A stretch of DNA of 64,000 nucleotides from Candidatus Methanomethylophilaceae archaeon (lineage in GTDB: Archaea; Thermoplasmatota; Thermoplasmata; Methanomassiliicoccales; Methanomethylophilaceae), in NCBI GenBank assembly GCA_944320495.1, contig CALUHR010000013.1, positions 352,001 to 416,000 of the forward strand, written 5' to 3'. The notes beneath the pieces are model-generated. The model saw only the letters and a program-made list of their open reading frames with translations, did no database searches and was not told the DNA's origin. Shown piece by piece: positions 13,713-61,397 of this stretch. The number at the start of each line of letters is the position of its first letter. The first letter of the stretch is position 1. A program made the translations under genes and the position numbers.

Positions 13713-15083
13713 ATGCCGTGCATGTTCCCGATGGATCCGTTCAGGCTGCAGGACCACGGCACGACGCCGGAGAGGGAGGCTGTCGCAGGTTTCACCACGT
13801 TCCTCTCGATGGCGTACATCCTGGTCACCGTGCCGGGGATACTCTCATCGCCGGACGGGATGCAGTGGGGCGCCGTGTTCCTGGCGTCGGCGATATCGTC
13901 GGCCGTCGGCACCCTCGTCATGGCGCTGTACGCCAACGTGCCGTACGCGCTGGCCCCAGGCCTCGGGATGGCCTCGTTCCTCACGGTGACCGTGTGCGGT
14001 GACATGGGATTCACCTGGCAGGAGGGTCTGTCGATCGTCTTCATATGTGGACTCGTGAACATCGCCATAACCCTGAGCAACGTCCGCCGCCTGATTATCG
14101 CGGCCATACCCCGCAGCCTCCAGCTGGCGATATCCGGGGGCATAGGGCTGTTCCTGGCCTACGTCGGACTGCTGGAGTCCGGCCTCCTGGACCTGTCGGG
14201 GAGCACCCCCGCCCTGGGCGATCTGGCCAGCCCCCAGGTACTGCTGTTCCTCGTCGCCCTCGTCGTGTCGATGCTCCTGTACATCCGCAACGTCCGTGGG
14301 GCGCCGATCATCGCCATCGCGGTCATCGCCCTCCTGGGCATCCCGATGGGCGTGACGCACATGGGTGACAACGTGGGCTTCGGAGAGGCAGTGTCCCAGC
14401 TATGCTCCTCCTTCGGGGCGATCTTCACATCCGAGGGCATACCGGCGCTCTTCTCCGACACCAGCAGGATACTGCTGGCGCTGGTCGCCATCGTATCATT
14501 CAGTCTGGTGGACACGTTCGACACCATCGGGTCGTTCGTGGGGACCGGGAGGAAGGCCGGCATATTCACGGAGGAGGAGATGACGACCGCCGGCGATGGC
14601 GGGTTCAGGACGCGGATGGACCGCGCCCTGGTGGCCGATTCCGTCGCGACCTCCGTGGGGGCGGTGTTCGGCACCTCGAACACCACGACGGTGCTCGAAT
14701 CGGTGGTGGGGATCTCGCAGGGCGGCAGGACGGGTCTGGCATCCGTGGTGACGGCCGCGTGTATCCTGCTCATAATGCCGGCGGCGGCACTCATCAGCGT
14801 CATACCAGTGCCGGCCTATTCCGCGATCCTGGTGATGGTGGGCGTGATGATGCTCTCGTCGTTCAGGAGCATCGACTGGGAGGACCTGGGGGAGGCGGTC
14901 CCGGCGTTCTTCGCGGGGCTGTTCATCGCCCTCTGCTACAACATCAGCTACGGGATCGGATTCGCGTTCATCGCCTTCTGTCTGACCAGGGTGTTCCTCG
15001 GCCGTGCCGGGGAGGTCAGCAGGCTGATGTGGGTCGTCTCAGCCCTTTTCGCGGTGATGTTCGCGCTGCAGGCGATCGTGCGA
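13713..15083 (+). CDS. NCS2/AzgA family purine permease (ends at CGA 15081-15083)
   Basis: LAPGLG, GIGLFLA, DTFDTIGS, GGRTGL; start 13713, 13722 or 13731. Confidence 0.9.
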
Positions 15084-15095
15084 TCGCGAGAAGCC

Positions 15096-16145
15096 TCGCC
15101 TGCGCTTCCTTCCGGACATCGCCACATAGGCGAGCAGATGTTCCAGCTGCACCCTCTCGAGGGGCATGCCCATGCCCCCGGACCCGCACTGGGCTATGCG
15201 GAAGTCCGTCTCCCCGACCTTGTCCAGGAGCCTCACGGCCTCCGCCCCCTCCAGCCCGAGCTCCAAGGCCTGCCTCTGGATCTCCGTGGCGATCTCGCGG
15301 CAGGTCATGCCCTCGCCGATGAGCAGCCCGTCCAGCGCGTCCCTGGCGGCCATGAAGTCGCCCGAGCGTGCCTTGGAGAGCATGTCCCTGACCCCGTTGG
15401 AGGAGCGGGTCTCGGACACGGCGAAGACCGCGTCGAGGTCCACGCGGCCTCTGGTCACGGCGGCCGCCTGGAGCATGGCCATCGCCCTCCTGATGTCCCC
15501 GTCGGCGGCCATGGCGATACCGTCCGCCGCCCCGCGGTCCAGTTCGACGCCCTCGGACTCTGCGACCTCGACGATGCGCTTCGAGAGGTCGGCGCGGGGT
15601 ATGGGGACGAACCTGACGACCCCGCACCTGGACCTCACGGGGTCGATTATCATGGACTGGTGGTTGCAGGCGAGGATGAACATGCAGTTGCGGGAGTAGA
15701 CCTCCATGGTGCGCCTGAGGGCCTCCTGCACCTCCTTGGACATCGTGTCGACCTCGTCGATGAAGACGACCCTGAACCTGACTCCGTCTATCGATGCCGT
15801 GGACACGAACTCCTTGATTCTCCAGAGGGGGCTGTCCATCGTCTTGGTGACGGTCCTGACGGTCGTCTCTCCCTCGTCATCGGTCTCCGTGACGGTGACC
15901 TCGCGTTTCTTGGTGAGGTCGGAGGCGTCGATCTCCAGGAAGTTGCCCTCGATGTTGCCCTCCAGGACCTCCCTCGCGACGATGAGCGCGCAGGTGGTCT
16001 TGCCGGTCCCCGGGGGGCCCGCCAGGAGGAGGTGCGGCACGCTCTGCTGGGACGTCAGCGGTCTGAGCCTCTCGACGGCCATCGGCTGGCCCACGATCCC
16101 GTCCAGGGATGTCGGCCTGTACTTCTCCATCCAGACGGACTCCAT
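15096..16145 (-). CDS. rfcS: Replication factor C small subunit (ends at CGA 15096-15098)
   Basis: [29 protein letters not shown]. Confidence 0.9.
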
Positions 16146-16239
16146 CTTGATCGGGGGTCCATGCCCCTCGACCTATTAGGGTCCATCGTCCGTCGCAATC
16201 TGCTTATATCGCAAACTGGTTAAGCGGTCACTTAATGGG

Positions 16240-17040
16240 ATGAACGGCATGGACGACATCGCGGAGGATCTGAGGGTGGTGTCGGACGGGACGAGGTTCT
16301 CGATCCTGGCCATCCTCCTCAGGCACGACATCTGCTCCGGGGCCCTGGCACGCAGGCTGGGGATATCCGAGGCGGCCGTGTCCCAGCACATGAGGGTGCT
16401 GAGGGAGGCCGGTTTCGTCACTCCCGTCCGCCGCGGGTACTTCACCCACTACGAGGTGGACCGCGACAGGATCCGCATGCTGGCACATGCTCTGGAGGCC
16501 ATGTCCCTGAGCGACCGCGCCCCATGCGACCCGGTCCTCGAGGGATGTGACAGGAAGGGCCGCGGGAGCTGCCGGTCGGCGGTCCCCGGTGCCGGATGTC
16601 CCAGGATGGAGGGCGGTGAGCCCCCTTGCCCGGGGTGCCGCCGCTGCATGACAGAGAGAAGGTCGGGAATCATGAGGGTAGCAGCCACATACGAGAACGG
16701 GGAGGTCTTCCAGCACTTCGGGAGGACGCAGCAGTTCAAGGTCTACGATATCGAGGACGGGAGGGTGGTCTCGTCCGCGGTCCATGGGACCGGCGGCAGG
16801 GGTCACGGCGAGCTCATCAATGTGCTGAGGGAGCTCGATGTCTCCGCGCTCATCTGCGGGGGCCTCGGGGGCGGTGCGATGCAGGGGCTCGAGGCTTCGG
16901 GCATACGTGTCGTGCCGGGATGCTCCGGGGATGCGGACGCCGCCGTGCAGGCGTTCGCCGAGGGGAGGCTGGAGGGACCCACGGGGCCCACCTGCGACCA
17001 CCACGGCGAGGGTCACCAGTGCTCCTGCGGGAGGCACCGA
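16240..17040 (+). CDS. ArsR-family HTH + Cys-rich linker + NifB/NifX-like domain in one frame (ends at CGA 17038-17040)
   Basis: ISEAAVSQHMRVLREAG; QHFGRTQQF, LICGGLGGGA; HHGEGHQCSCGRH tail. Confidence 0.75.
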
Positions 17041-19239
17041 TCGCCCGTAGAACGGGACCGAGTCCCAGCCGGTGCGGCGCCTCCTTATGCGCCGGCCGGC
17101 GTCCTCGTACCCGTCCATGACCTCCTTGGTCACGGACGGCATCACGAGCCCCAGCGCCGCATCGAAATGACGCTGGCACACCTTCGCGGCCCCGGGGTCC
17201 TCGCGGTAGGCGGCCAGTCCCGCCTCGCGGCACACCGAGGCGAGGTCCGCGCCGGTGTAGCCGTCGGTGGACCTCGCGACCGCATCCAGGTCCACGCCGT
17301 CCAGAGGCATCCTCTTTGTGTGCACCGCCAGTATGCTCCTGCGGGCCCTCTCGTCGGGCTTCCCCACGAGGACGAGCCTGTCGAACCTGCCGGGCCTCAG
17401 CAGGGCCGGGTCTATCATGTCCGGGCGGTTGGTGGCGCCCATGACGGTCACGTTGCGCATGCCCTCGACCCCGTCCATCGAGGTGAGGAGCTGGGCGACG
17501 ACCCTCTCCCATGCGGAGCCGTCCCCCGCTCCGCGGATGGGGGCGATCGAGTCCAGCTCGTCGAAGAATATGATGCAGGGGGCCATCTGCTTGGCCCTCT
17601 TGAAGATCTGACGGATGGCGCGCTCGCTCTCGCCCATCCACTTGCTGGCCATCTCGGGACCGTTGACCGAGATGAAGTTGGTCCCGGACTCGTTGGCCAT
17701 CGCCTTCGCTATCAGGGTCTTGCCGGTCCCGGGCGGTCCGTAGAGCAGGACCCCCTTCCCCGGCTCGATGCCGAGCCTCTCGCAGGGGTTGCCCTCCTCG
17801 GTGGACAGCACCTCGCGGATCTGCGCCCTCACATCGTCCAGGCCCCCGACGTCCTCCCAGGTGACCTTGGGGATCTCGACCAGCACCTCGCGCATGCCAC
17901 TGGGCTCCACGTCGGACAGCGCAGCCCTGAAGTCGTCCATGGACACGCGCATGCTCTCGAGGATCTCCGACGGGACCTTCCGGTCCAGGTCGAACTCCGA
18001 CATGCGGGCGCTGAGGCAGTGCATGGCGGCCTCCCTGCAGAGGGCGGCCAGGTCGGCGCCCACGAAACCCTGGGTCATGGAGGCGAGCGCGTCCGGGGTG
18101 ACGTCCTCGGTCAGTGGCATCTCCCTCAGGTGGACGGAGAGGATGTCCGCCCTCGCCTTCCTCCCGGGAATCCCGACCTCGATCTCCCTGTCGAACCTTC
18201 CAGGGCGTCTCAGCGCCGGGTCGATGGAGTCCTCCCTGTTGGTGGCGCCGATGACTATGACGTTCCCCCTGTCCCCGAGGCCGTCCATCAGGGTGAGGAG
18301 CTGGGCCACCACCCTGCGCTCCACCTCGCCAGAGACCGCGTCCCTGCTGGGGGCGATGGAGTCTATCTCGTCCAGGAACACGATGCTGGGTGCGCTCTCC
18401 TCCGCCTTCTTGAATATCTCCCTCAGGCGCTCCTCGCTCTGGCCGTAGTACTGGCCCATGATCTCCGGTCCGCGGACCGAGAACAGGGTGGCGCCCGACT
18501 CGTTGGCGACCGCCTCGGCCATGAGGGTCTTCCCTGTGCCGGGCGGTCCGTAGAGGAGTACGCCCCTCGGGGCCCCTATGCCCAGGCGCTCGAAGAGCTC
18601 CGGATGCTTCAGGGGGAGCTCTATCATCTCACGGATGCGCTTCAGCTCGTCATCCAGGCCGCCCACGTCGTCATAGGTGATCTGATGGCCGGTCTGGCTC
18701 TTCGCCGTCTCACGCTTGCGGGGACCGTCCCTGACGACAACCTTGGTGGATTCCGTGACGATGACCGGTCCCTTCGGGACGGTGGATGCGACCGAGAACG
18801 TGGAGCGGTTGCCCATGAGGGCGATGTTCGGCACGATGATGTCCGTGTCCGCCACGAGGGGGCGGTTGAGGAGCCCCCGGAGGAAGATCTCCTCGATCCC
18901 GTCCTCGAACCTGATGCGCTTGCCCTCGGGGATGTTCGGGGAGAGGACGACCTGCTCGGCGGGGGCGGGGTCGCATCTCCTCACGGTGACGCTCTCGTCC
19001 ACGCTGACCCCCGCGTTGGTCCTGGTGAGGCCGTCTATCAGCAGCAGGCCGCGGCCCTCGTCCGTCTGGTCGCCCTTGAAGACCTTGGCGACGACGGTGC
19101 GCTTCCCGACGATCTCGATGGTGTCCCCCAGCTCCAGACCGAGGGCCCTGCGGGACTCGGAGTCCATCCTAGCCCTCCCATATCCCGCCTCGGACTGGGA
19201 CCTGGCCATCGCGACTTTCAGGACGATCGAATCGGACAT
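17041..19239 (-). CDS. cdc48: CDC48/VAT AAA+ ATPase, 732 aa (ends at CGA 17041-17043)
   Basis: Two GPPGTGKT Walker A motifs, [20 protein letters not shown]; FYG (HbYX) directly before CGA. Confidence 0.95.
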
Positions 19240-19284
19240 CGCCCGTAATGAATGCGTCCGCTCGGATAATCATCGCGGTCCCGA

Positions 19285-45914: not shown

Positions 45915-46007
45915 GCGGACGGGGATATCTTAGCCATAGATAAGGTTCGGCTCGGGATGTTCGCGCGATGTGTTTATCGCTCCGATCGCGTTCGTACGGG
46001 CGATACC

Positions 46008-46490
46008 ATGGAGTCGCGTTTCGAGATGGAGGTCCGCGGGATGCTGGCCCGTCCGCCCCTCGGATACAGGAACGTGCCGGCCGAAGGGCTGGAGCTGTTC
46101 TGCAGGGCCCTGACCCATGACAGCTACACCAACGAGCACGGGGACGAGTCCTACGAGAGGCTGGAGTTCCTGGGGGACGCGATCCTGGAGTTCGTGGTGT
46201 GCGAGGCCGTGTACAGGGACACCGACCTGAGGGAGGGTGCCATGACCGACTTCAAGCAGGACAAGGTGGCCAACCGCATGATCTCGGAGCGCGTGCTGGC
46301 CTCCTGGCCGGAGATCGATTCGATGATGAGGGTCGGGGGAGGGCATGTAGACCGCTCCACCGGAGCGAAGCTCATCGAGGAGAACATGCGCGCGGATTTG
46401 TTCGAGGCGTTGCTCGCCGCGGTGTACCTCACGTACGGGATGGACGAGGTCAGGCGCCTGGTCGGGGAGGTTATCCTGGGCAAGGGATAA
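46008..46490 (+). CDS. rnc: Ribonuclease III catalytic domain without dsRBD
   Basis: ALTHDSY, YERLEFLGDAIL, ADLFEALLAAVYL. Confidence 0.88.
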   Translation: MESRFEMEVRGMLARPPLGYRNVPAEGLELFCRALTHDSYTNEHGDESYERLEFLGDAILEFVVCEAVYRDTDLREGAMTDFKQDKVANRMISERVLASWPEIDSMMRVGGGHVDRSTGAKLIEENMRADLFEALLAAVYLTYGMDEVRRLVGEVILGKG

Positions 46491-46553
46491 AGGTTGTGAA
46501 TCAACTATCGTTGCGTTATTCTATTAAACGCTGAAACGATACACGTTGCCACC

Positions 46554-47999
46554 ATGTCCGACCTCCTCTCTTAGGTGAAAGGTGGGGAATCCACCATTCT
46601 CGAATTCAAGGAGTCTCTGCAAGAGGACAGCATCGGCTGGTTGAAGACGGTCGTGGCGTTTGCCAATGGCAGGGGCGGAAGGCTCGTCGTGGGCGTAGAT
46701 GACAGGGGTGAGGTGTTCGGAGTCACCAAGGAGGAGCTGGAACAACTCTGTCAGAGTATCGACGATTCCATATCGGATTCCATAGTCCCGCAGATATCGA
46801 GAGATGTCTATGTCCAATCTCTTGAGGGCGAGTCGGTGGTGGTCGTAGAGGTATATCCAGGGCCTGGCAGGCCATATTACATCAAGAGGCTCGGTGTGAA
46901 GGAAGGGACTTTCGTTCGCAGGGGAGCATCCACTCGCCTGGTGGACGATGCCACCTTGGATGAGCTCAGGCTTCAGGGGAAGCGCTCGACATTCGATTCT
47001 CTAGAGAATCTCGATATTGCTGTTACCAGAGAGAGGACAGATTGTATAATCAGAAAGGTTGGGGAGTTATACGGTGCCGAGATCGATGAGACCGATCTCC
47101 GCAACTGCGGTATCATCAGGGTGAAAGATGGCCAGGATATTCCAACCAATGCATATGCCCTTCTTTGTAGCGACTCTCCGTTCCTTTTCACAGAAGTCAG
47201 GTGTGCTCTCTTCAAGGGTCGTAACGGGACCGAATTTCTAGATCAGGCGGATTTCTCATGTCCTATATTCGAACAGATTGAGAATGCCTATCGTTTTGTT
47301 CTCCGCAATATCAGGAAGAGCGGACGTGTAAGTGGTCTTGTTCGCGAGGACAGATACGAGATACCGCCCGATGCGATTCGCGAGGTAATCGTGAACGCCG
47401 TTCAGCACAGAAGCTACATCAATAGCAATCGTCCGATACATCTGGCCATATTCGACGACAGATTGGAGATAACGTCCCCCGGAATCCTTCTGATAAGTCG
47501 TGATGAGATGAAGCAAGGTCGCACGGAGCATCGCAACCCCGTGATATCCAAATTCTTCAGACTCGTCGGCATTTGCGAAGGTTGGGGGAATGGGATGTCA
47601 ACGATCATCCACAACTGCGTGGAATATGGGCTGCCGGAACCATCCATAGAGGAAGGGCCCGCGGATGTCATAGTCACAATCTGGCGTCCTGTGGATTATG
47701 ATCAGTCTCATGACACTGATGATGACACTGATGACACTGATAATCAGTCTCATGACACTGATGACACTGATAATCAGTCTCATGACACTGATCAGATAAG
47801 AACTGTCCCCAGAAATCGCAGAGAACAGATAATCCAGATGATGGAATCGGATCCATCCATCTCAATAGAGGGCCTGTCCAAGAAGTTGGGTATGTCCAGA
47901 AGCACGATCAACCGTGATATACAGAGGCTCAAGGCAGAAGGTGTTCTCTCGAGGGATGGAAGCAGCAAGAAGGGCCTTTGGACGATTCACCGGAATCGA
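46554..47999 (+). CDS. AlbA_2/Schlafen-like domain + HATPase_c_4 + HTH protein (in-frame TAG 46572-46574; ends at CGA 47997-47999)
   Basis: ILEFKE, VAFANGRGG..VGVDD, REVIVNAVQHRSY, IFDDRLEITSPG, RNP; lower GC. Confidence 0.8.
47701..47792 (+). repeat. In-frame tandem repeat encoding QSHDTD(D)TD
   Basis: Three ATCAGTCTCATGACACTGAT units with GACACTGAT sub-repeats. Confidence 0.9.
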
Positions 48000-48009
48000 G
48001 GTCTGATGC

Positions 48010-56821: not shown

Positions 56822-58024
56822 TCAGTCCATCTGGTAGATTACGAACCCGGACCAGATCTTCGGGAAGAAGAACGTGGTCTTCTTGGGCATGCGCTTGCCC
56901 TTCATCGAGAGTTCCCAGATGGTGTCGAGGCTCGGGGGGTTGAGCAGGACGGCTGCATCGAACTCGCCGGCATCCATGCGCCTCATCACGTCGTCGGCCT
57001 CCGCGTCGTAGGAGACGTCCGCCTTGCCCTCGTCGCTCTTGTAGACCCCGTACAGGATCCTCTGCTGGACGGCGTAGGTGTCGAGGCTCATCATCTCGTT
57101 CCCGCCGTCATCGTCGAGGTCGGCGAGCAGGCACTTGCCGGACCTGAAGCGGATGCCCATCATGTGGCCGGGGAGGCGGTCCAGGAGCTCCTCGACGGGC
57201 ACCTCCTCGGTCCTGAACGCGGCCGAGACGCCCTTGATGGCGTTCTTCTCGGAGATGTTCCCCGACTTGATCAGGCGGTGGGTCGGCCAGATCACCAGAC
57301 CCTTGTCGTCCGCCGGGACGAGGGTGGCCAGAACGTACTGGCGCTTCTCGTCGTCCGGGTTCTCGCGGGCGTAGTTGAGGGCGGTCTCGTAGCGGTGGTG
57401 GCCGTCCGCGATGAGCATCCTCTGATCCTTGAGCTCGGATGTGATGGCGGCGGTTATCTCTGGGTCCGAGAGCCTGTAGTACCTGTGCTCCACACCGTCG
57501 GAGTCGACGTAGCGGTAGACGAGGCGCTCGTTGTCCCTGATCCTCCTGGAGAGCTCCGGGGTCAGCCCGTTGAATATGCCGAAGATGGACTCCAGGTGGC
57601 AGCCCATGTCCCTGAGGAGGTTGAGGCGGTCGGCCTTGACCTTGGAGAAGGTCTCCTCGTGGGGGATTATGTTGCCCTCCCCGTAGTCCTCGGTCCTGAG
57701 GATCCCGACGATCCCTCTGCGGACGCGCTGCTCGCCGTGGTCGTCGAAGGTCTGCTCGTAGATGTAGAAGGACGGCTCGTCCCTCTTGAGCTCGTTGTCG
57801 GCGATCCACTGATCGAGCTCGGCCTTGGAACCGTGGTACCTCTTGTCGGCGTCGGGGTTGAGCGTCAGCCTGGTGATGTTGTGCGGTTTGGACTGAAGTT
57901 CCTTGAGGTAATCGGGTCCGATCACGTCATAGGGCGGCGAGATGCGGTCACCGATGTGCTCTCCTGCTTTCAGGTTGGGTCTGAGACCCTCGAACGGGAG
58001 GAAATCCACCATCTTGATCCTCAT
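56822..58024 (-). CDS. DUF1015 family protein
   Basis: SPPYDVI, PHEET, IADGHHRYET, PKKTTFFFPK; start 58024 or 58012. Confidence 0.88.
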   Translation of the reverse strand: MRIKMVDFLPFEGLRPNLKAGEHIGDRISPPYDVIGPDYLKELQSKPHNITRLTLNPDADKRYHGSKAELDQWIADNELKRDEPSFYIYEQTFDDHGEQRVRRGIVGILRTEDYGEGNIIPHEETFSKVKADRLNLLRDMGCHLESIFGIFNGLTPELSRRIRDNERLVYRYVDSDGVEHRYYRLSDPEITAAITSELKDQRMLIADGHHRYETALNYARENPDDEKRQYVLATLVPADDKGLVIWPTHRLIKSGNISEKNAIKGVSAAFRTEEVPVEELLDRLPGHMMGIRFRSGKCLLADLDDDGGNEMMSLDTYAVQQRILYGVYKSDEGKADVSYDAEADDVMRRMDAGEFDAAVLLNPPSLDTIWELSMKGKRMPKKTTFFFPKIWSGFVIYQMD

Positions 58025-58103
58025 GGTTCCGCATGTCCACGGAATATAAGAGGGGTTCGAGAAGGGGAAGGGGGACCCGCTGGGGAGAGGATCCGTTTTC
58101 CGA

Positions 58104-58454
58104 TTATTCGGATTCGAGGTTCGGATCCCCAATCATGATTAGAGGTCTGATCTCCAGACTGTAGTACAGTATGTGCCAGATTGCCACCCCGAAGAGGAAT
58201 CCCGCCACGGTGCCCGCGACGACGAAGGTCGGATTGTAGGTCTCCATGATCCACCAGTATGCCGCAGTTATGATGACCGCCGGTATCGCATAGGCGATGC
58301 AGCGGATCAGCCTCTTCTGGTCGGACCATATCTCTGATCCGTCAATCCCGATAATGCCCAGTTTCCTGTTGCATCTGCTGACCAGGATGAATGCTATCAC
58401 CAAGGTGATGAGTGGTGGAATTAGACACAGGGTGGTGGGATGCATTTTCACCAT
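58104..58454 (-). CDS. Small 3-TM membrane protein
   Basis: Hydrophobic segments; lower GC. Confidence 0.5.
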   Translation of the reverse strand: MVKMHPTTLCLIPPLITLVIAFILVSRCNRKLGIIGIDGSEIWSDQKRLIRCIAYAIPAVIITAAYWWIMETYNPTFVVAGTVAGFLFGVAIWHILYYSLEIRPLIMIGDPNLESE

Positions 58455-58674
58455 TCTTCTACTTCGTAACCGTTGGGTACGGTATGCCAAACAACCCACG
58501 TTTCGTAGACCGCATAGTTCTTGCAATCAGCAATCAGTTTTCCGTACATTCAACCCTCCCGACCGTTAGGTCGAAAAATGAATCGTTCGAAGCTCAATAT
58601 TTAAAGATTATATTCGAAAATTATGAAAAATTAAAATGTAGTCACACAGCCATCATATGATTCAAAGTGCTACA

Positions 58675-60144
58675 TCGCTCGGCGGAACCGAACAGATCCA
58701 TGACCCTCTTGGTATCCGGGGAAACATCGGAATGGAATCTGAATCCGTTGCTCACGATGGTCACATATCTCGAGGCCAGCGAGAACGCGTCATCAACTGT
58801 GAGTCTGGAGTCGCCGTCTTCGAGAATCTGGGCTATGGCGGTGCGTATGCCTGTTGACAGGAACATCAGGAACCTTTCCCATCCATGACTTCCTGATGAA
58901 TCGGCCGAGAAGATGCTGTCGATGAGTGCATGGGATTGCTTCAGAGTCATGCTCCTCAGATTAATGAGATCCATGGCATACTCCCATTGCTCTTCCGTGG
59001 TCAGTATCACCGATGATCCGATGCATCCGTCAATCTCTGATATCAGATGCGATGTCGCGGAGTCATTGTGCGGCAGATTGTTGTACCTCAGCATCCTAGA
59101 TACGCTGGATTCCGTGTATCCGATGCTCTTTGTCATGTTCCTGATGTGGCGGACCGGTTTTGTCAGGAACACATTAAAGGTGAACATGCAATCATCATTT
59201 CCTCTGCCACGGTCGACATATGTCCAAGCTCCGTTGTTCAGTCTTATCCCGAGACATCCTTGGTACACATCATGCTCTATTCCATGATGCTCAGCTTTGT
59301 GATATTCTGTGGCCATCATGCCCAGGGCTGAGCGCAGAGTGTCAGAGCATGTCCCGATTCTCATAGTCATCCTGTCTCCGTCCATGAGCATCCTGGCGAT
59401 CTCCGGGGGATTGTCCGAAATCTCGTCCAGGACCCTGACGAGTCTGACGTTCGTACCTGTCGCGATGGCCATGCGTCTCCACGCACCCGCGTTCATGCTC
59501 CTGCCGATGGTAGCGCCTGCGGCTATGGGGCGGCCCATGTCATCGGAGCAGAAAATCAGCGACACGTCGTCCGCATCGTGGTCCATCGGGCTCTTCATGG
59601 ATGCGTGTCTGAGTCCCCCGTTCCTGCCCGAGAGTCCGAAGACGATGACAGGGCCGTCGGATCCCTCGCGGATCGTCCATGCATACCTCTTGATCGATTC
59701 GTAGTCTATCTTCGATATTGCCCTTCTGATCAATCCAGCGGTGGATGCTGCATCGCCGAGGACCGGTTCGAGGTCCAAACCTCTGAGGAGACGGATACGG
59801 TCGGCACTAGGCAGGGGATTGATCGCATAGCAGATAGCCAATGCGAGCATCATGTCTCCGTCATCGCCGAAGACGCATCTGAGTGCATCCCTCATCCCGC
59901 ATCTCTCTGCTGCGTTGGAGGCAATCAGCACGCTTCCGCGATCGAGGGTGGAGAACCTTCCATCGGACAGCATGGAGCATGCCGCATCGATCGGCAGCGG
60001 TTTCACATCGACCATCCCGGTCTTCGGATCGAGGATGCCGATGTACTCCTTCATGCTCACAGGGTTCTTCCTACCAGGGACGCGTCTCGACTCCGTCCGG
60101 TAGACGTACGTCCTGCCGTTCCTTTCCACGTACACTATGGGCAT
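58675..60144 (-). mobile_element. Degenerate IS1634-like transposase-derived ORF, 489 aa (ends at CGA 58675-58677)
   Basis: N-terminal GRTYVY..PG.KNP..YIGILDPKTG resembles IS1634 transposases; DDE triad not recognisable; no terminal repeats seen. Confidence 0.55.
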
Positions 60145-61316: not shown

Positions 61317-61388
61317 GGCCCTGTGGGGTAGCGGATATCCCGTCAGATTTCGGCACTGACAATCCGGGTTCGATTCCCGGCAGGGCCG
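61317..61388 (+). tRNA. tRNA-Arg(TCG) with atypical anticodon arm
   Basis: GGCCCTG/CAGGGCC acceptor stem, A20, anticodon TCG at 61350-52; A31.A39 mismatch and C38; CCA not encoded. Confidence 0.85.
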
Positions 61389-61397
61389 CCTGTTTCT

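Follow-up and report, generated by a model that had tools for sequence, protein, structure and literature searches.

The window analysed here is a stretch of 64,000 nucleotides from a Candidatus Methanomethylophilaceae archaeon (G000:C13:352001-416000, contig CALUHR010000013.1 of assembly GCA_944320495.1), whose genome, G000, is a 1.77 Mb archaeal assembly of 14 contigs with about 62% GC. It contains two convergent genes, one for a CDC48-type ATPase, both of which appear to end at CGA, a codon that the standard code assigns to arginine. The gene for the CDC48/VAT-type AAA ATPase lies on the minus strand (17041..19239) and comprises 732 codons from the ATG at 19239 together with the CGA terminator at 17043..17041. 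Its product shows the Pfam domains CDC48_N (residues 7-90), CDC48_2 (111-175), AAA (227-356), a second AAA, and AAA_lid_3 (two AAA plus AAA_lid_3 in all), and the frame closes with ..WDSVPFYG. The last three codons, TTC TAC GGG (17044..17052, minus strand), specify Phe-Tyr-Gly, a candidate HbYX motif. On the plus strand a gene for an ArsR-type helix-turn-helix domain fused to a NifX/NifB-like (Nitro_FeMo-Co) domain occupies 16240..17040; it runs for 266 codons from the ATG at 16240, with Pfam matches to HTH_5 (16-61) and Nitro_FeMo-Co (153-240), and ends ..CSCGRH before a CGA at 17038-17040. This gene has a third-position GC content (GC3) of 0.87 and no in-frame CGA. The plus strand at 17029-17052 reads GGG AGG CAC CGA TCG CCC GTA GAA, in which the palindrome CGATCG (17038..17043, both strands) consists of the CGA of the plus-strand gene and the complement of the CGA of the minus-strand gene, touching without a gap. 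An earlier note on this DNA had described the two gene ends and their contact in these terms, and both the sequence and the reading frames confirm the description.

If CGA is instead translated, as in translation table 11, the CDC48 frame continues for 270 further codons to a stop at 16228-16230, giving 1003 residues, and the ArsR-NifX frame continues for 735 further codons to a stop at 19246-19248, giving 1002 residues; each extension passes through the antisense of the opposite gene. The figures of 732 against 1003 residues, and hence of some 270 extra residues, given in the earlier note are therefore correct. The coding signal of both convergent genes stops at their CGA. GC contents at the three codon positions are 0.64, 0.46 and 0.92 in the body of CDC48 (codons 1-732) and 0.86, 0.53 and 0.66 in the tail, which is the signature of antisense sequence; the codon log-odds score is 0.82 in the body and 0.04 in the tail; and in-frame CGA is absent from the 732 codons of the body, where the trinucleotide occurs 65 times off-frame, as against six occurrences in the tail. 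The 271-residue read-through tail, whose 270 codons beyond the CGA (16231..17040, minus strand) are antisense to ArsR-NifX, thus does not look like coding sequence in this frame but like antisense. In the public protein collection, the 1003-residue frame forms a cluster of 30 members drawn from NCBI, ENA and Logan assemblies, and the 732-residue form is not found there. Among 14 strain variants taken from this cluster, the body differs by 8-12 residues (1.2-1.6%) in 13, and the tail by 24-30 residues (9-11%), the divergence of the tail between strains being about seven times that of the body.

The check proposed in the earlier note was to align the C-termini of orthologues, and this was done for CDC48 from 33 species of the genus (Methanomethylophilaceae, UBA71 / Ca. 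Methanoprimaticola group). The protein ends ..PFYG in all 33 congeners, and the next codon is TGA in 28 of them and CGA in the remaining five (G000, G026, G041, G010 and G002), where the next standard stop lies 271-500 codons off. Orthologues extending past FYG, which the earlier note would have taken as contrary evidence, were looked for among the 33 congeners and the wider Methanomassiliicoccales compared, and no conserved extension was present in any CDC48 orthologue. The read-through sequence in the species with CGA is antisense either to ArsR-NifX or to an unrelated gene ending ..PYMAKDL, and therefore holds no conserved domain. The neighbouring genes behave in the same way as CDC48. ArsR-NifX orthologues from 14 species end ..HxCxCG[RK][HN], one with an extra Ser, and are followed by TGA in 12 and by CGA in two, the TGA codons falling at or adjoining the same position; the alternative neighbour ending ..PYMAKDL is followed by CGA in six species and by TGA in five.

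The two codons have been exchanged repeatedly. The hexamer at the CDC48 junction is TGATCA in 16 congeners, CGATCG in five and TGATCG in two (G046 and G065, with mixed TGA|TCG junctions), and the gap is zero in 23 of the 33 species, with two different neighbour genes. A maximum-likelihood tree of the CDC48 gene, built from its last 1.4 kb, requires at least three independent switches between TGA and CGA, all forced by well-supported branches; G002, with CGATCG, is nested among the TGATCA species G006, G066 and G037. The hexamer is palindromic and contains GATC, and both of its T residues are replaced together in five species, as might be expected of a sequencing or assembly artefact such as a systematic T-to-C miscall at methylated TGATCA. 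Such an artefact is nevertheless extremely improbable: the same 1003-residue frame appears in 30 gene calls of separate NCBI, ENA and Logan assemblies, which shows that faulty assembly does not account for the CGA and that public annotation takes it as sense, and CGA stands here in five species-level genomes; mixed junctions exist; TGATCA is not depleted in the genome (1228 occurrences, against 1384 of CGATCG); and miscalling could not remove CGA from the interior of genes.

Beyond the 33 congeners, a second collection supplied 30 further Methanomassiliicoccales orthologues of CDC48, which end in [F/L/Y/S]-Y-[G/Q/R] followed by a standard stop. In UBA537 (L136, DATC01000053.1), ..FYG is followed by CGA and then, 14 codons on, by a back-up TAG. 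CDC48 ends ..SYR or ..YYS in more distant families, and in one of these (G016) it ends ..DSY-CGA-TGA, where CGA is plainly arginine at the X position of the motif. Two contigs carrying CDC48 genes with 74-76% identity and ..PFYG-TGA ends are filed as 'Lachnospiraceae bacterium' (L108, CAVHQB010000001.1) and 'Prevotella hominis' (L110, CAVHMZ010000045.1); these assemblies are probably mis-binned or mislabelled.

The behaviour of CGA across the genome accords with that at this locus. Gene calls of at least 120 codons, made non-redundant by removal of overlaps, were scored by codon log-odds with CGA set neutral. When CGA was counted as a stop, 1437 calls ended with TGA in 1026 cases, CGA in 349, TAA in 46 and TAG in 16. 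The median coding score after CGA is -0.33, whereas after each of eight control codons treated as stops it lies between +0.4 and +0.7. In-frame CGA with coding context on both sides occurs only 13 times in the 1.77 Mb, against some 350-710 times for each of CGG, CGT and AGA (derived from counts and shares), and only about two of the 13 look real, one in the gene for the release factor aRF1 and the other at an in-frame junction of two genes. The CDC48 gene has no in-frame CGA in nine congeners, as compared with one, one and six in three other families. Immediately behind the terminator, a standard stop is present at 6.3% of CGA ends but at 3.1% of TGA ends (P 0.01). CGA ends 14 of 53 calls within the window, and in five such genes other than the two described above the Pfam domains all lie before the CGA, with no domain in the read-through part.

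Taken together, the repeated exchange of TGA and CGA, the TGA found at the same codons in sister species and the near-absence of CGA inside genes point to CGA as a stop. Several features expected of a stop codon were thus found, namely that the coding signal ends at CGA, that orthologues have a standard stop at the same position and that CGA is absent from the interior of conserved genes; loss of the cognate tRNA, also tested for, was not found. The standard code, under which CGA would be arginine and the two proteins 1003 and 1002 residues long, can call on the open table 11 frames, on the presence of a tRNA-Arg(UCG) gene and on public gene calls that list only the 1003-residue form. It is made very improbable by extensions that are mutually antisense, antisense in composition and not conserved between strains or species, by the TGA that stands at this codon in 28 of 33 congeners, by the lack of CGA in conserved coding sequence throughout the genome, and by the fact that the extension would bury an invariant HbYX tail.

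A different means of preserving the standard code would be site-specific C-to-U editing, turning CGA into UGA at gene ends. The two codons are one such change apart, and CGA in the DNA where relatives have TGA is equally to be expected on this account. A DNA contig (X3, 16631-17604) and a contig from an RNA library (X16, 16840-17075) span the junction. It is however hard to see how about 350 stop sites could be served by a targeting system of a kind unknown in archaea and fitted into a 1.8-Mb genome, and editing would leave unexplained an in-frame CGA in the aRF1 gene, an altered tRNA-Arg(UCG) and a dependence on the following base, all described below. Site-specific editing is accordingly quite unlikely. 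Frame-blind editing of every CGA was also considered and rejected: at 14 NCG-A codons of CDC48, 30 of 42 cells in the alignment with other families agree with the residue expected without editing and three of 42 with that expected after it, and such editing would turn four invariant prolines of CDC48 into leucine.

The contact of two stops at the CDC48 junction is a common arrangement in this genome. The gap between genes is exactly zero (YGATCR) in 24 of 223 convergent pairs (Poisson P ~4e-23), as against at most four pairs for any other gap between -10 and +10; examples are found at C13:75633, C13:91304 and C13:206659 in addition to window 17038-17043. CGA provides 34 of the 48 stops in these junctions (71%), compared with some 25% over the genome as a whole (binomial P 5e-11). 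How often a stop is CGA also depends strongly on the next base: the proportion is 39% where T follows, 23% with C, 19% with G and 11% with A, and there is a single CGA among 69 stops followed by AA; the best following triplets are TCG, TGG and TCA, with about 50% CGA each. In a junction without a gap, the base next to each stop is a T that belongs to the complement of the opposite stop, so that both terminators acquire a favourable next base. It is tempting to suggest that the abutting architecture is a packing solution which at the same time gives both terminators this favourable context. Secondary peaks were observed among convergent overlaps at 14 nucleotides (eight pairs) and 11 nucleotides (seven pairs), as at C13:114541-114554, C13:295508-295521 and C1:29676-29686, without obvious shared sequence.

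The C-terminus of CDC48 offers a functional rationale for termination at CGA. Archaeal CDC48/VAT was reportedly described by Barthelme and Sauer in 2012 as an HbYX-dependent activator of the 20S proteasome. The HbYX pattern has been given as [LVIMGAPFYW][FY]x at the very C-terminus, that is, a small or hydrophobic residue, Tyr or Phe, and any residue (Forouzan et al. 2012, PMC3493965). Removal of the last 12 residues of Thermoplasma CDC48 abolished proteasome activation, and the need of an earlier Thermoplasma construct for a gateless proteasome was blamed by the same authors on its C-terminal His tag (PMC3493965). The Thermoplasma protein resembles the one described here in having CDC48_N, CDC48_2 and two AAA modules, a terminal tripeptide that fits the pattern, and 20S genes in the same genome; it differs in ending L-Y-L before a standard stop, whereas here the tripeptide is F-Y-G, followed in five of 33 species by CGA, and docking is predicted only. 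Genes for the 20S alpha and beta subunits (PF00227) are located at C13:33431-33982 and C1:45063-45593 (199.6 and 179.9 bits), a PAN-like ATPase encoded here has M-F-G as its last residues, followed by TGA, and a second paralogue of CDC48 is without the HbYX motif. The F-Y-G of CDC48 fits the pattern, and it is terminal in this genome only if CGA ends translation. The statement of the earlier note that FYG fits only if CGA stops is upheld by the match to the published pattern (PMC3493965), by the invariance of ..PFYG and by the TGA that follows it in 28 of 33 species. That note went on to call this the strongest functional support for CGA as a stop; the support is real, but its rank is a matter of taste, and the decisive evidence is comparative, since sister species have TGA at this very codon. 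The argument from function, though sound, is indirect, and it explains why a 271-residue extension would be harmful and selected against.

The means by which CGA might be recognised can be considered in terms of the two molecules that would compete for it. The genome has a single aRF1 gene (G000:C2:85933-87402, minus strand). Throughout the order, aRF1 has Arg at the x of the YxCxxxF motif (YRC), in alignment with L126 of the human and L123 of the yeast protein. In yeast, eRF1/eRF3 releases peptides at CGA in competition with Arg-tRNA (Wada and Ito 2018, PMC7379694); the UGA-biased eRF1 mutants L123F, L123R and L123Y improve growth of a strain with a CGA-repeat reporter, and L123R also gives more product from a single terminal CGA (PMC7379694). 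The likeness is that a factor of the eRF1/aRF1 family acts at CGA against Arg-tRNA, with the aRF1 of this order naturally having Arg at the position concerned; but the yeast reaction is weak and incidental and concerns a rare codon, whereas here release at CGA would be the normal end of about a quarter of genes. The Arg of YRC is common to sister families that still use CGA as arginine, and is therefore at most a predisposition. Substitutions specific to the genus are R to M four residues after NIKS, and HHQGGQSS around GGQ; the GTS-loop region reads G-R-S-T-E-L in G000 alone and G-R-G-T-E-L in its congeners.

The aRF1 gene itself contains an in-frame CGA (C2:86934) at a conserved Arg, ..SIAA-R-LKTYK, in the context GCT CGA CTN. 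The thirteenth congener compared (G005, with 8% contamination) has AAG at that codon, and the aRF1 genes of nine genomes from other families have CGC, CGG or AGA there, with CGA scattered over other Arg positions. The presence of a conserved in-frame CGA means that the codon must sometimes be read through. Bacterial RF2 (prfB) is autoregulated through an in-frame UGA, with a +1 frameshift. In both cases a codon read, or here presumably read, by the release factor itself lies in the early part of its own reading frame; with RF2 the frame shifts, whereas here it continues, and tRNA-Arg(UCG) would provide the bypass by decoding CGA in the CGA-CUN context. A low level of release factor would then lead to more full-length aRF1, which would be a form of regulation like that of RF2.

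The cognate tRNA-Arg(UCG) is encoded within the window itself (61317..61390, plus strand; ARAGORN, Rfam); A31 and A39, which face each other at the foot of its anticodon stem, are mismatched. A search of 41 congeners revealed a gene for it in 22. None of the 21 congener copies extracted has a matched pair at positions 31 and 39 (A-A, C-A or U-C), which leaves an anticodon stem of four pairs, whereas the pair C31-G39 is intact in four of four other families of the order; if G26 is drawn as paired with C44, the alternative is a five-pair stem with an anticodon loop of nine nucleotides. Since this tRNA is retained, CGA is not simply unassigned; its retention together with the broken 31-39 pair argues for a leaky stop that competes with a tRNA, not for a clean stop. 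The same defect, which may slow decoding across the genus, lends some colour to the idea that CGA is unassigned or poorly decoded and that stalled ribosomes are released by rescue (of Pelota/ABCE1 type or similar) without codon recognition by aRF1, and release at CGA in yeast was itself interpreted as rescue of stalled ribosomes (PMC7379694). Rescue seems costly, however, for a quarter of all genes; the dependence on the next base, including the near-avoidance of CGA-AA, resembles the context effects of release factors; and the in-frame CGA of aRF1 is sensible as feedback only if aRF1 reads CGA. Release of this kind is unlikely, and remains as a mechanistic variant of termination at CGA.

The best explanation of these results is that CDC48 is made as a protein of 732 residues with a free ..Pro-Phe-Tyr-Gly end and that CGA serves as a stop beside TGA in this genus, which the comparative evidence makes probable. 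The locus speaks for a genetic code, so far undescribed, with CGA as a terminator of proteins, and CGA is probably a context-dependent, leaky stop read by aRF1. In the mechanism proposed, the sole aRF1, with Arg at the x of YxCxxxF, would terminate at CGA by outcompeting a tRNA-Arg(UCG) with a broken 31-39 pair. Termination would depend on context, being favoured before U, avoided before A and somewhat leaky, and the CGA-UCG context at the CDC48 junction would be among the most favoured. The free F-Y-G tail would then allow CDC48 to engage the pockets of the 20S alpha ring, in the manner of the Thermoplasma protein. On a wider view, which we consider likely though less assured, CGA would be a fourth, context-dependent and leaky stop throughout a whole genus of free-living gut methanogens, balanced by the weakened tRNA-Arg(UCG) and by the in-frame CGA of aRF1 acting as a feedback sensor, with convergent genes packed as YGATCR so that each stop supplies its opposite with a U; a sense-to-stop change of a nuclear-type code would then be on record for the first time in a cellular organism.

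Certain observations weigh against termination at CGA, or against its simplest form. The binding of CDC48 to the 20S proteasome has determinants besides HbYX. The tRNA-Arg(UCG) gene is not only retained but structurally plausible, scoring 55.7 bits against the Rfam tRNA model, and 12 of 13 congeners keep CGA for the conserved Arg of aRF1. Site-specific editing to UGA at 17038 and 17043, though quite unlikely, would leave the same pattern in the DNA. The gene calls are crude, so that the share of genes ending at CGA (24%) is approximate. Finally, about 4% of proteins match the HbYX pattern by chance (PMC3493965).

Sense codons have become stops in several organelles, as with AGA and AGG in vertebrate mitochondria, UCA in Scenedesmus and UUA in thraustochytrid mitochondria. 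In those codes, as here, a sense codon of the standard code marks the ends of genes and is avoided inside them. They belong however to tiny genomes in which the cognate tRNA has usually been lost, whereas the present case concerns a free-living cell with some 1,500 or more genes, where a modified cognate tRNA is kept, TGA is still the main stop and one conserved in-frame CGA persists in aRF1. To our knowledge, sense-to-stop changes have so far been accepted only in organelles, and if CGA is truly read as a stop here, a free-living cell would have undergone such a change. No published description of CGA as a stop in this lineage was found in the literature, the nearest being a preprint in which CGA is considered possibly a stop in two Njordarchaeales assemblies, where it is absent from recognisable domains (Melnykov 2026, 10.64898/2026.04.02.715157). 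The Njordarchaeales case concerns another phylum, is coupled to CGG as Trp in genomes of about 50% GC without a tRNA(UCG), and comes with no gene-end evidence, whereas here there are gene ends and orthologues, and the tRNA is kept. Genetic code 34, in which all TAG codons are read as pyrrolysine, has been described for Methanomethylophilus and other pyrrolysine-using archaea (10.1101/2024.09.30.615893); a text search of that paper found no mention of CGA. Its bearers include gut methanogens of this family, and TAG hardly serves as a stop here either, but code 34 is a stop-to-sense change.

New in this analysis are the comparison at the level of the locus, the architecture of the junction, the influence of the following base and the defect of tRNA-Arg(UCG) particular to the genus. 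As far as comparison of genomes can establish it, the CDC48 locus shows cleanly that genes of this genus end at CGA, and it lends itself to experiment: it is testable, with a functional rationale that sets a form of 732 residues and free F-Y-G against one of 1003 residues that would be unable to dock. A route to the change is suggested by an aRF1 predisposed to CGA, a weakened cognate tRNA and feedback in the aRF1 gene. Because databases hold only the read-through form of CDC48, false C-terminal extensions have probably been annotated onto roughly one protein in four of these common gut methanogens.

Two neighbours of the CDC48 locus also end at CGA. A gene of the xanthine/uracil permease family (13713..15083, plus strand) has its Pfam match at 22-414 of 456 residues and no domain in its 379 read-through codons, and a gene of replication factor C small subunit type (15096..16145, minus strand) has Pfam matches that end by residue 321 of 349, with a standard stop 18 codons past the CGA. 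Elsewhere in the genome, the second credible in-gene CGA, at C13:194145 (minus strand), reads ..ERELFGS-CGA-AVFIDRDDT.. with a strong coding signal on either side; it may be an in-frame junction of two genes, possibly a read-through fusion, whose downstream part is HAD phosphatase-like. TAG (16 of 1437) and TAA (46 of 1437) are seldom used as stops, a scarcity that fits a pyrrolysine-using lineage of Methanomassiliicoccales relying mainly on TGA and CGA. TAG was also considered as a sense codon, since 161 crude calls ended at TAG with periodicity beyond it; these proved to be antisense shadow frames, of which 16 were left after removal of overlaps, and they arise because C-TAC, with the Tyr codon preferred behind a codon ending in C, reads G-TAG on the opposite strand. 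The sequencing runs that hold the sequence of the locus are chicken-gut and bird metagenomes, and one of them (X1), which shows no difference from the window, is probably the source sample. Two segments of the window, 46001-48000 and 58001-60000, have GC contents of 0.54 and 0.53, as compared with 0.62-0.68 in the window.

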